From an uncultured Gammaproteobacteria bacterium (lineage in GTDB: Bacteria; Pseudomonadota; Gammaproteobacteria; UBA9214), in contig CAVVHS010000002.1 in NCBI GenBank assembly GCA_963748215.1, positions 128,001-192,000 on the forward strand: a DNA stretch of 64,000 bases, read 5' to 3'. Every line of letters begins with the position of its first letter. Positions within the stretch are counted from its first letter, which is position 1. A program made the position numbers and the translations under genes. Below are positions 4,018-25,846 of the stretch, piece after piece. The notes beneath the pieces were generated by a model. The model searched no databases and was not told where the DNA came from. It saw only the letters and a program-made list of their open reading frames with translations.

Positions 4018-6450
4018 ATGAAGGAAAAACTCGTCCTGGTAGGCAACGGCATGGCCGGCGTACGTACCCTCGAGGAACTGCTCAAGCTCGCACCGGAACG
4101 TTATGACATCACGGTGTTCGGCGCCGAGCCATACGGCAACTACAACCGGATCATGCTGTCACCCGTGCTGGCCGGCGAGAAAACCATCGATGACATCATG
4201 CTCAACGACGAGCAATGGTATATCGATAATGGTATCAGCCTGCACAAGGGCAAGACCGTTACCCGCATCGACAGGCTGCGGCGCCAGGTGATCGCCGATG
4301 ACAGTACCACGGCACACTATGACCGCCTGCTGCTGGCGACCGGCTCCAACCCGTTCATCATCCCGGTACAGGGACACGACAAGGACGGGGTGATTGCCTT
4401 CCGCGACATCCACGATGTCGACACCATGCTGGCGGCTTCGCGCGACTACAGGAAGGCCGTGGTAATCGGTGGCGGCCTGCTCGGACTGGAAGCCGCCAAC
4501 GGCCTGATGAAACAGGGCATGGAGGTGACCGTCGTGCACCTGCTCGACTCGCTGATGGAACGCCAGCTCGACAAGCCGGCGTCGGGGCTGCTCAAGCGCT
4601 CGCTGGAACAGCGCGGCATGACCTTTTTAATGGAAGCCCAGACCAGCGAGATCCTCGGCAACGGCCGCGTCCGCGGCGTGCGTTTCAAGGATGGCAGCGA
4701 AGTCGAGGCCGACCTGGTGGTAATGGGTGTCGGCATCGTGCCGAATGCCGCCCTGGCGAAGAGTGCCGGCCTGTACTGCGAGCGCGGCATCGTGGTGAAC
4801 GACGTCATGCAGACGTACGACCCGCGCATCTACGCGGTCGGCGAATGCGCTCAGCATCGCGGCATCGCCTACGGCCTGGTCGCGCCACTGTTCGAGCAGG
4901 GCAAGGTTGCGGCCAACCAGCTCGCCGGCCTTGGCTATTCCCATTACAAGGGCTCGGTCACCTCGACCAAGCTCAAGGTCACCGGCATCGACCTGTTCTC
5001 GGCCGGCGAGTTCAACGAATCCGAGGGCGACGAGGTACTGGTATTGCAGGACGATGCCGCCGGCAACTACAAGAAACTGGTCATCCGCGACAACCGGGTC
5101 AAGGGTGCGGTGCTGTACGGCGATACCATCGACGGCAGCTGGTACTTTCAGCTGATGCGTGAGGGCACTGGCATCGCGGATTTTCGCAAGACCCTGCTGT
5201 TCGGCCAGCACGACCTGGGTGACGCCGGCCACGGCGACGAGACGCGTGTCATGTCGCTGCCCGACTCGGCAGAGATCTGCGGCTGCAACGGCGTGTGCAA
5301 GGGCGATATCGTCAAGGCCATCAGCAAGCAGGGCCTGTTCACGCTGGATGATGTCCGCGCCCACACCAAGGCCTCCAGTTCCTGCGGTTCCTGCACCGGC
5401 CTGGTAGAGGCGCTGCTCGCCAGCACGGTGGGCGAAGGCTACGATGCCTCGCTCAACAGGAAACCGATGTGCAAGTGCACCCAGTACAGCCACGACGAGG
5501 TGATCGCTGCCATCAAGCAAAACGAACTGAAGGCCATGCCTGCGGTACGCAATTTCCTGGAGTGGAAGAACCCGGACGGTTGCGCCGCCTGCCGCCCGGC
5601 ACTCAATTACTACCTGCTGGCCTACTGGCCCGGCGAATACCGGGACGATGCGCAGTCGCGCTTCATCAACGAGCGCGCGCACGGCAACATCCAGAAGGAC
5701 GGCACCTACTCGGTGGTGCCGCGCATGTTCGGCGGGCTGTGCAAGCCGGACGAGCTGCGCGCCATCGCCGATGCCTGTGACAAGTACCAGGTACCGGAGG
5801 TCAAGGTCACCGGCGGCCAGCGTATCGACATGTTCGGCGTGAAAAAGGAAGACCTGCCGCTGATGTGGAAGGACCTGTCCGAGGCCGGCCTGGTCTCGGG
5901 TCATGCCTATGCCAAGGCGTTGCGCACGGTGAAGACCTGTGCCGGCAAGACCTGGTGTCGATTCGGTACCCAGGACTCGACCGGGCTTGGCGTGCAGCTG
6001 GAGCAGATGACCTGGGGCTCGTGGATGCCGCATAAATACAAGATGGCGGTGTCGGGCTGTCCGCGCAACTGTGCCGAGGCCACCATCAAGGACTTCGGCG
6101 TGGTGTGCGTCGACTCCGGTTACGAATTGCACATCGGCGGCAACGGTGGCATCAAGGTGCGCATCACCGACCTGCTCACCAAGGTCGAGACCGAGGAACA
6201 GGTGAAGGAATACTGCGGCGCGTTTACCCAGCTGTACCGCGAGGAAGCTCACTACCTGGAACGCACCGCCCCCTGGGTTGAACGTGTCAGCCTGAGCTAT
6301 ATCAAGGGCAGGATCCTGGAAGACGCGGAAGACCGCAAGGCACTGTACGAGCGATTCCTGTATTCACAGCAGTTCTCGCAGACCGACCCCTGGAAGGAAC
6401 GCGCCGACGGTTTCGCAGCACACGAGTTCACGCCCCTGAAGATCGCGTAA
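4018..6450 (+). CDS. nirB: NAD(P)H-dependent assimilatory nitrite reductase large subunit
   Basis: GNGMAG FAD motif, GGGLLGLE NAD motif, BFD-like CGCNGV/CGSC clusters and siroheme motif SGCPRNC. Confidence 0.96.
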   Translation: MKEKLVLVGNGMAGVRTLEELLKLAPERYDITVFGAEPYGNYNRIMLSPVLAGEKTIDDIMLNDEQWYIDNGISLHKGKTVTRIDRLRRQVIADDSTTAHYDRLLLATGSNPFIIPVQGHDKDGVIAFRDIHDVDTMLAASRDYRKAVVIGGGLLGLEAANGLMKQGMEVTVVHLLDSLMERQLDKPASGLLKRSLEQRGMTFLMEAQTSEILGNGRVRGVRFKDGSEVEADLVVMGVGIVPNAALAKSAGLYCERGIVVNDVMQTYDPRIYAVGECAQHRGIAYGLVAPLFEQGKVAANQLAGLGYSHYKGSVTSTKLKVTGIDLFSAGEFNESEGDEVLVLQDDAAGNYKKLVIRDNRVKGAVLYGDTIDGSWYFQLMREGTGIADFRKTLLFGQHDLGDAGHGDETRVMSLPDSAEICGCNGVCKGDIVKAISKQGLFTLDDVRAHTKASSSCGSCTGLVEALLASTVGEGYDASLNRKPMCKCTQYSHDEVIAAIKQNELKAMPAVRNFLEWKNPDGCAACRPALNYYLLAYWPGEYRDDAQSRFINERAHGNIQKDGTYSVVPRMFGGLCKPDELRAIADACDKYQVPEVKVTGGQRIDMFGVKKEDLPLMWKDLSEAGLVSGHAYAKALRTVKTCAGKTWCRFGTQDSTGLGVQLEQMTWGSWMPHKYKMAVSGCPRNCAEATIKDFGVVCVDSGYELHIGGNGGIKVRITDLLTKVETEEQVKEYCGAFTQLYREEAHYLERTAPWVERVSLSYIKGRILEDAEDRKALYERFLYSQQFSQTDPWKERADGFAAHEFTPLKIA

Positions 6451-23670: not shown

Positions 23671-23909
23671 TACGGACATACCAGCAGGTAGAAGGTGAGA
23701 TCGCGCAGCTATCGAGAGACTGGCCTGGGCCATGTACGAGAGCGGCCATACCTACGATGTACAGGGAAGTACGAGTGTCACGAGAGGACACGACTGCAGG
23801 GAGGAGGTGAGACCGTTTTTACGGGCATAGCCCGGGTCGAGAGGCTGGCCTGGGCCATGCAGGAGGTAGAGCAACGCAGGAGCAGTTGCCGAGGAAGCCC
23901 GAAGCGGCC
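23671..23909 (+). repeat. Cluster of nested GGA-hairpin miniature elements
   Basis: Two copies of GRAGGTGAGA..TGGCCTGGGCCA (23691-23732, 23803-23857) and one CGACTGCAGGGA..GTTGCCGA element (23791-23892). Both families recur at 25049-25208. Confidence 0.8.
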
Positions 23910-24688: not shown

Positions 24689-24765
24689 GCGCCCGTAGCT
24701 CAGTTGGATAGAGTGTCGGTTTCCGAAACCGAAGGTCACAGGTTCGATTCCTGTCGGGCGCGCCA
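24689..24765 (+). tRNA. tRNA-Arg (CCG)
   Basis: GCGCCCG acceptor stem, anticodon arm TCGGT-TTCCGAA-ACCGA, GTTCGATT T-loop and encoded CCA; 77 nt. Confidence 0.95.
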
Positions 24766-25274
24766 TTTACAGTTTCAGTTCCGCACCGGAAGGTGCGGGA
24801 CTGTTCCGGTTCGACCGGCAGGAAGCGAACCTGTGAAACAGGTTCGACCAGCCACCGGAAGGTGGCGCAGAACGTCGTCGCGTAGCGACGGCGGCCCCGC
24901 AGGGGTGAGGGCCAGCGGCCCGAATATTCCTGTCGGGCGCGCCATTTACAGTTTCAGTTCCATATCGGAAGGTGCGGGACTATTCCGGTTCGGCCGGCAG
25001 GAAGCGAACCTGTGAAACAGGTTCGACCAGCCACCGGAAGGTGGCGCACGACTGCAGGGAAGCACGACTACACGGAGAAGGTGAGACCGGGTACCGGACG
25101 GAAGGCTGGCCTGGGCCATGTAGGAGGTAGAGTAACGCATGGAGCGGTTACCGAGGAGTTAGGGCACCAAAAGTAGGCGCCTTAGGCGATGCAGGGAGCC
25201 ATTGCCGGGAACGTCGCCGCACAGCGGCGGCGGCCCCGCAGGGGCGAGACGGTAATCCCCTGCAGGGACACCCA
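24747..25274 (+). repeat. tRNA-linked tandem repeat (179-bp unit; second copy carries a 160-bp insertion)
   Basis: ATTCCTGTCGGGCGCGCCATTTACAGTTTCAGTTC occurs at 24747 and 24926, followed by near-identical downstream sequence. Confidence 0.9.
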
Positions 25275-25297
25275 ATATCAGCGAGACAGGCACCGCC

Positions 25298-25846
25298 ATG
25301 AACCTAGACAGAGTACCGTCCGGCGATAACGTGCCAGACAATGTCAATGTCATCATCGAAATACCGTCCCACAGCGACCCGGTAAAATACGAGGTCGACA
25401 AGAAAACCGGCGCCATGTTCGTCGACCGTTTCATGGATACCGCCATGCACTATCCGTGCAACTATGGCTATATTCCGCATACCCTGTCCGAGGATGGCGA
25501 CCCGGTCGACGTGCTGGTGGTGACACCGGTGCCACTGATCAGCGGTGCGGTAATCCAGTGCCGCCCGATCAGCATCCTGCGCATGTCCGATGAAGCCGGG
25601 CCGGATGCCAAGATCCTCGCCCTACCGGTGGACCGGCTGTCTACCCACTACCGCCATATCGACTCGCTCGACGAACTCCCGCCGGAGCTGCCCGCGTCGA
25701 TCGCGCACTTTTTCGAGCACTACAAGGACCTGGAGCCGAACAAGTGGGTCAAGATCGAGGGATGGGACGGGCTGGATGCCGCCCGAGAGGAAATCCTGGC
25801 AAGCATACAGCGTTTCAAGGATGCCCCGGTCAAGCCGCACTTCTAG
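25298..25846 (+). CDS. ppa: Inorganic pyrophosphatase
   Basis: KYEVDK, YPCNYG, DGDPVD and [10 protein letters not shown] motifs. Confidence 0.96.

Follow-up and report, generated by a model that had tools for sequence, protein, structure and literature searches.

A three-deep nest of miniature hairpin elements beside a tRNA-Arg gene of an uncultured gammaproteobacterium

It is largely unresolved how REPs, SDRs and other repeats of very small size proliferate in bacterial genomes. SDRs of Nostocaceae are reportedly 21–27 nt long, form hairpins, sit inside one another and have been proposed to be mobile; we know of no enzyme that mobilises them, and in this respect, too, they resemble the elements described below. 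REPs, imperfect palindromes of 20–40 nt that bear a conserved GTAG (or CGTC) tag at one end, are usually lineage-specific; their single-copy RAYT gene is flanked by cognate repeats, and inverted pairs (REPINs) act as the replicating unit. Known IS200/IS605 derivatives measure 100 bp or more, and elements of this group are expected to show a bias for the lagging-strand template. Transposition of IS608 and ISDra2 follows a single-strand mechanism (cf. PMC6006769). Di Nocera et al. 2013 (PMC3733652) describe REPs that have entered other palindromes, and put the number of empty targets in the hundreds.

The locus described here lies downstream of a tRNA-Arg gene in the window, by which we mean the whole stretch of 64,000 nucleotides that was analysed, taken from an uncultured gammaproteobacterium (GCA_963748215.1, contig CAVVHS010000002.1). 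A tRNA-linked repeat is present there in two tandem copies, of which the second is split by a nest of short elements (B, C and G):

24689..24765, + strand: tRNA-Arg (CCG), found by ARAGORN and by the Rfam tRNA model (71.2 bits); its 3′ end opens the linked repeat
24749..24927, + strand: tRNA-linked repeat copy 1, 179 bp; the empty site is the junction 24869/24870
24928..25270, + strand: tRNA-linked repeat copy 2, split by the 160-bp nest; 3′ limit approximate
25049..25064, + strand: outer B, left piece, 16 bp, GCA at its end; a plain 48-bp form occupies the same site in genome G008
25065..25076, + strand: inner B, left piece, 12 bp, CGGA at its end
25077..25118, + strand: element C, 42 bp, a degenerate copy with 3 changes in the conserved core
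25119..25154, + strand: inner B, right piece, 36 bp
25155..25166, + strand: outer B, middle piece, 12 bp, GCA at its end; delimited from sequence and from the orthologs in G008 and contig L139
25167..25188, + strand: element G, 22 bp; L139 carries B with G, G008 carries B without G
25189..25208, + strand: outer B, right piece, 20 bp, CCGG at its end

In copy 1 the repeat reads ...GGCGCA up to 24869 and is directly joined to GAACGTCG, which starts at 24870. For copy 2, the last base of GCA is 25048, and GAACGTCG (GAAC...) picks up again only at 25209. The insert is exactly 160 bp long (25049–25208) and without target duplication, and its empty site is preserved 179 bp upstream; every coordinate that the earlier note had given for this junction is borne out by the letters themselves. 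The insert is made of four units, namely an outer B of 48 bp, an inner B of 48 bp, a C of 42 bp and a G of 22 bp, which together account for the 160 bp. The outer B is divided into three pieces (25049–25064, 25155–25166 and 25189–25208) and the inner B, located after a GCA of the outer one, into two (25065–25076 and 25119–25154). C occupies the hairpin loop of the inner B, while G sits in the right half of the outer B. The layer boundaries proposed earlier for the inner B (25065–25154) and for C (25077–25118) were placed correctly. So was the depth of three levels, C in inner B in outer B; the accompanying inventory, however, was incomplete, since it overlooked a fourth element, G (25167–25188), which lies alongside in the outer B. 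When folded as single-stranded DNA, each emptied B forms two hairpins and is stabler than its shuffles (z −2.3 and −3.0), whereas the full nest is not (z +0.2). The C copy in the nest is slightly decayed.

The host repeat has features of its own. Each of the two tandem 179-bp units opens with the last 17 nt of tRNA-Arg. The core of the tRNA-linked repeat is found at 10 places in the genome, 4 of which carry a B-type right end at the nest junction, and elsewhere in the genome the same core also follows tRNA-Ser and tRNA-Gln. The Rfam model RtT (RF00391) matches the host repeat at 24802–24944 with 31.1 bits, under its gathering score of 45.

The same site can be followed in relatives. Within the genus, both repeat copies of G007 are empty, the single copy of G008 contains a plain 48-bp B at exactly this junction, G018 carries there a B with a 42-bp C in its loop, and G002 and G006 lack the repeat altogether. 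Metagenome contigs L137, L138, L140, L142 and L143 are empty, L141 is empty in both copies, and L139 carries B with G. One orthologous site is thereby seen as empty, B, B+G, B+C and B+G+B(C), the last being the state of this genome. The empty sites that the earlier note had seen in the paralogous copy 1 are kept at the orthologous site of relatives as well. Over the first 300 nt of ppa, identity to this genome is 93.0% for L139, 91.2% for L138, 90.7% for L137, 89.0% for G008, 82.0% for G007 and 81.7% for G018. Two rare variants of the outer B are common to L139, G008 and this genome, while the B of G018 belongs to another subtype. The presence of two B subtypes and of graded states at a single junction argues that the site was hit at least twice and that the nest was built stepwise. 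The empty, B, B+G and B+C states of one site point to stepwise, site-specific gain or loss of units; alternatively to gain, the series could reflect their precise loss.

As the earlier note anticipated for mobile elements, copies recur well beyond this locus. BLAST with the pieces of the nest returned 158 pieces genome-wide. For C, a loose two-end pattern gave 77 matches, about a dozen of which are chance matches in genes; a stricter pattern, which leaves out the degenerate C of the nest, gave 68 copies, and the family survey counted 61. The 68 copies fall into two size classes, 42 bp (n=39) and 53–55 bp (n=29), and 64 of them are intergenic according to a crude gene finder. The long form equals the short form plus an extra small hairpin, and in one copy (contig C7 of this genome, region of 440653) this extra 18-nt piece is repeated three times in tandem. 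A search for an autonomous long element with C ends in the genome returned none, the unpaired C ends being truncated copies or chance matches in genes. Two further C copies lie in the window itself:

23691..23732, + strand: second C copy, 42 bp, found by pattern search
23791..23892, + strand: another B with a 55-bp C variant (23803–23857) in its hairpin loop

Together with D-type hairpins they form a second cluster (23691–23892), just before a terminator-like hairpin.

The flanks of C reveal its target. Among the distinct sites in the matches listed, C is preceded by NGGA in 100 of 115 and followed by TG in 113 of 115. The two flanks form at least four Watson-Crick pairs with one another at 76 of the 115 sites, compared with 16.6 expected when flanks are re-paired at random, and the right-flank 8-mers are of 66 different kinds. 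Flanks that are this diverse and yet pair mutually indicate that C sits in the loops of many different hairpins. C ends are sharp rather than ragged, with an ambiguity of only 1 nt, and they are identical in hosts that have only about 6+2 nt in common. In an ungapped alignment of 96 sequences, the first hairpin of C is 98.1% paired and shows two-sided changes at 5 of 6 pairs, as does the flanking helix (5 of 6 pairs). None of 500 shuffles reaches the observed values, and slid controls are 21–36% paired. The second hairpin is uninformative because the search pattern selected it and thereby made it invariant. Each host type contains short as well as long forms of C, with the exception of the D-REP host, which carries long forms only (6 of 6). 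In one case, in another genome, a C lies inside another C (L125, about 6247–6316).

B and G obey comparable rules. BLAST-based peeling recovered 24+1 full copies of B, with GCA as the left flank in 18 of the 25. This procedure is too strict and missed the inner B of the nest, so the count of B inside B, 7 cases with the inner copy at the same point after GCA, rests on the sequence listing. G was found 7 times, always after GCA and in the same position within the right half of a B-type unit; an eighth match is a chance one, in a gene. A GTAG motif lies in B between the two hairpins, ahead of the second, and C and G have no GTAG/CGTC tag. More hairpin modules, of 23–25 nt, also sit in B, and all of these B-resident modules have the hairpin tip CA-(N)GGA-TG. 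Empty tips of this kind with at least three further pairs number, in the genome, 119 among 2416 core matches, against 7 among 277 for the backwards control. All units are nested or in tandem in one orientation. The discrete, non-autonomous units that the earlier note had put at about 45 bp thus range from about 22 to 55 bp; comparison of empty with filled junctions upholds its statement that they lack terminal inverted repeats and target duplications, and the short fixed targets, together with recurrent nesting at the same point, agree with its proposal of site-specific insertion into each other.

We note several other repeats in this genome. C is also housed in a MITE whose terminal inverted repeats measure 22 bp, some copies of which contain B and a GC-rich element of about 230 bp as well; the loci concerned are C9:2294–2618, C9:19882–20563 and C6:221328–222000 of this genome (G000; L132–L134). 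MITE copies with and without inserts provide further empty/filled pairs. Other short repeats are unusually abundant, too: regions composed of 15-mers that each occur at least five times add up to about 96 kb and include GTAG-headed REPs at about 150 and about 70 copies.

The elements are unevenly distributed. In a sample of the class with one genome per family, the C motif is present in 4 of 200 other families. Within the family of the window, 47 of 53 other genomes carry C, at 0–49 copies per genome, and within the genus the copy number ranges from 0 to 61, with B, C and G rising and falling together. Matches to the nest number 0 in G250 (100% complete), 1 in G010, 1 in G253, 2 in G007 and at least 50 in G242. 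The backwards control pattern gave 0 matches in all 201 class genomes and all 54 family genomes. This genome-wide recurrence, set against a silent backwards control, indicates that the nest is not a product of chance. At least 114 stretches among GTDB species genomes contain a perfect match to a 23-nt piece of C; the matches listed are from Gammaproteobacteria MAGs that include, by record label, Ectothiorhodospiraceae, Chromatiales, Lysobacterales and Porticoccaceae, and C is near-identical across families. Typical C and B copies are also seen on four MAG contigs labelled ‘Halobacteria archaeon’ or ‘Rhodothermales’ (L039, L057, L064 and L052), which seems to reflect errors of binning or labelling more than a genuine presence in those groups.

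Searches of reference collections are in line with the earlier statement that no named family was recognised. Rfam covariance models did not match the elements at E up to 1 in the window and up to 0.1 at five further loci, and at permissive thresholds they left the MITE and the element of about 230 bp next to B unmatched. Plasmid and phage collections contained no match to the elements; among viral contigs there were 4 matching stretches. A literature search with the sequence motifs of the elements gave chance primer matches only, and one on nested or miniature hairpin REPs gave nothing relevant. Hammerhead and k-turn readings of C were dropped since the core positions do not fit, in agreement with Rfam.

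Taken together, we favor the view, at a probability of roughly 0.6, that four non-autonomous miniature insertion elements are stacked in the insert, having entered successively and moved as folded single-stranded DNA. The outer B would have entered the tRNA-linked repeat on the 3′ side of a GCA; G would then have its place 3′ of GCA in the right half of this B, and a second B 3′ of GCA in a hairpin arm of the first. C may have entered the first-hairpin loop of the second B, after NGGA and before TG. The short target of each lies within other elements of the system, which is how nests arise. By analogy with HUH enzymes, the responsible enzyme would act in trans, cutting and resealing the strand either at the exposed loop or on the 3′ side of the short target. 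B and C are each little more than two hairpins and leave no target duplication, and we reason that, at such a size, closure into double-stranded circles would be improbable. Given the small size of the units and the location of their targets in or beside hairpins, single-strand nicking and joining is the most economical route, one for which HUH enzymes are the known model. The units are discrete and sharp-ended, are met in empty and filled states, carry compensatory changes in their hairpins and differ greatly in number between close relatives. Counted against a mobile four-element stack are the negative search for a mobilising gene, the lack of strand bias, the divergence of C copies, the partial agreement of C variants with host type and the absence of read-level excision. 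Among the 39 copies of the 42-bp form, mean pairwise identity is 86.7% with 13 identical pairs, and this moderate divergence suggests that activity may be old or slow. At the nest locus itself there is no read-level sign of excision; joints that skip 42 bp in runs X1 and X8 are too short-sided (about 30 nt) to assign and may originate in other C copies. RNA runs contained less than 0.1 of the sampled words.

It is possible, if on balance improbable, that elements of 22–55 nt which home into each other's hairpin loops and arms make up an undescribed system, present in one gammaproteobacterial family and a few further lineages, and dependent on an enzyme that belongs to none of the Y1, Y2, IS110, reverse transcriptase or TnpB families. 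Such an enzyme would be an unrecognised strand-transferase, or a housekeeping enzyme acting on CA-NGGA-TG hairpin tips. If this holds true, the 42-nt, two-hairpin C would be among the smallest conserved transposable units known.

The alternative that survives best, although we regard it as unlikely, is Y1 HUH transposition proper, with B, C and G being REP- or PATE-like derivatives moved by the genome's own RAYT or by a TnpA of the IS200 type. The architecture of the units would suit it, with two subterminal hairpins, neither terminal inverted repeats nor target duplications, insertion 3′ of a short motif, and GTAG ahead of the second B hairpin. The genome also has five Y1_Tnp matches in four distinct genes, all of them best to the NCBIfam model for REP-associated tyrosine transposase and one above cut-off, and a Y1 match is present in 4 of the 4 class-level genomes with C. 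However, 0 of the 5 are flanked by B or C, and a clear RAYT at C2:111905–112123 is flanked by its own, different REP family. With the genome's own Y1 proteins as query, a Y1 gene was found near C at 1 of 114 C-bearing loci, in fetched stretches of up to 8 kb. Nor is any gene of this genome bracketed on both sides by modules; the transposase, HUH nuclease or recombinase gene flanked by these motifs, for which the earlier note had suggested looking, was thus not found.

Copy numbers speak against the Y1 explanation in the same way. Y1 matches occur in 48 of the 54 family genomes, in 47 of them over the family cut-off, and across the 54 genomes their number shows little relation to that of C copies (rho 0.115, p 0.41, a rough measure given that relatives are not independent). 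Four of the 19 genomes with at least 10 C copies have no Y1 match, namely G242 (49 copies, 96% complete), G252, G222 and G233, while all six genomes with zero C copies have Y1 genes. In the one-contig genome G232, with 18 C copies, there is a single Y1 match at E 5e-4, which is taken to be the sub-threshold one. The replication strand of C copies, read against a clean GC skew, shows no significant bias (39 vs 29, p 0.27), and TnpB is absent from 5 of 5 genomes tested. The attribution to HUH/Y1 enzymes (RAYT, IS200/605-like) made in the earlier note consequently loses its footing, as there is no flanked gene and the Y1 count does not follow C copies. Its second candidate, IS110, fares no better, with 0 matches in G018 (32 copies) and 4 in G250 (0 copies). 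The same pair of genomes gives 0 and 5 matches for reverse transcriptase, and Y2/IS91 is absent from the former and present in the latter. With none of these groups (Y1, Y2/IS91, IS110, reverse transcriptase, TnpB) following copy number, the HUH idea serves as an analogy only; membership in IS200/IS605 or REP-RAYT is unsupported, since the defining gene link was tested and failed.

A negative enzyme search could also suit an explanation without any dedicated enzyme, in which template switching or short-homology recombination among similar hairpins created composites that were then duplicated. Truncated and chimeric copies do exist, such as a C whose two flanks come from different D sites (the left half of one, the right half of the other), and the final 4 nt of some modules are identical to their left flank. 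Moreover, C variants partly follow host type, and in the E host one hairpin variant is present in 7 of 7 copies of the 42-bp form; much of the spread may therefore have been of composites and not of C alone. We nevertheless consider such an enzyme-free origin distinctly improbable. It sits poorly with identical C ends in hosts that share so few nucleotides, with both C size classes in all host types but D-REP, with two B subtypes at exactly the same junction in distant lineages, and with the near-identity of C across families.

Strong covariation in two helices, invariant unpaired stretches, a three-helix junction layout, and GNRA-like and GNA loops could also be read as signs of a structured RNA, the units then being modules with optional expansion segments and not mobile DNA. 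This we hold to be very improbable, as C shows no preference of orientation towards the genes reading into the element (34 co-oriented, 39 opposed, by the crude gene finder), the Rfam searches were empty, and the units are variously present or absent at orthologous sites and vary so widely in number within one genus.

That the nest is an assembly artefact at a repeat-rich spot of a metagenome-type assembly can be practically dismissed, as Logan contigs from runs of two studies, one of which may be the source sample, are exact across the junctions (X1 at 25019–25151 and 25129–25800; X5 at 25043–25195), which supports the assembly on a point that the earlier note had raised, and as independent assemblies show partial versions of the nest at this site. 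In a related strain (X9), a contig of 1496 nt links 25064 with 25189 through 60 other letters where this genome has 124, a different filling of the outer B. As 60 equals 124 − 42 − 22, the contig would fit a strain that lacks C and G, though this is only a possibility.

For the question of how very short repeats multiply, the locus offers clean material, with exact ends, a ladder of empty, single, double and nested states at one locus, and sister species that range from 0 to 61 copies. The closed genome G232, with its 18 copies and no canonical Y1 gene, adds to the value of the system. Given these exact ends, the ladder, the unequal copy numbers and G232, the mobiliser should be findable by gene association and testable in vitro with oligonucleotides of 42–48 nt. 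If the enzyme proves to be new, it would be a compact inserter of single-stranded DNA that is specific for both sequence and structure.

Compared with described systems, the units share with IS200/IS605 elements and PATEs the lack of inverted terminal repeats and of target duplication, a hairpin near each end (seen as covariation in the first hairpin of C and as the two hairpins of an emptied B) and insertion 3′ of a short motif, NGGA for C and GCA for B. They differ from them in being only 22–55 bp long, in having no linked TnpA/TnpB and in showing no lagging-strand bias. Similarly to REPs and BIMEs with RAYTs, they are short, extragenic, high-copy hairpin repeats, often located just 3′ of genes and arranged in mosaic clusters, and B has a GTAG motif next to a hairpin, though between its two hairpins. 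In contrast to REP/BIME arrangements, however, units keep one orientation and nest at several levels instead of forming inverted pairs (REPINs); C has no GTAG head, no cognate RAYT flanks the units, Y1 genes do not track copy number, and C is near-identical across families.

The SDRs of Nostocaceae, which we compare by description only, are likewise very small, hairpin-forming, nested and proposed to be mobile, yet they belong to a different phylum and probably differ in sequence; in PMC5861425, SDRs are said not to occur outside Nostocaceae. For the host repeat only, the RtT repeats of the E. coli tyrT operon (RF00391) offer a parallel, with tandem units of about 178–179 bp 3′ of a tRNA, each opening with the 3′ end of the tRNA; the Rfam match falls short of the gathering score, and it is silent on the nested elements. 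In sum, we file the system with tiny hairpin repeats of the REP/SDR type, among which it is notable for the absence of the customary mobilising genes, for how deeply its units nest, for the ladder of states at one locus and for its conservation across lineages.
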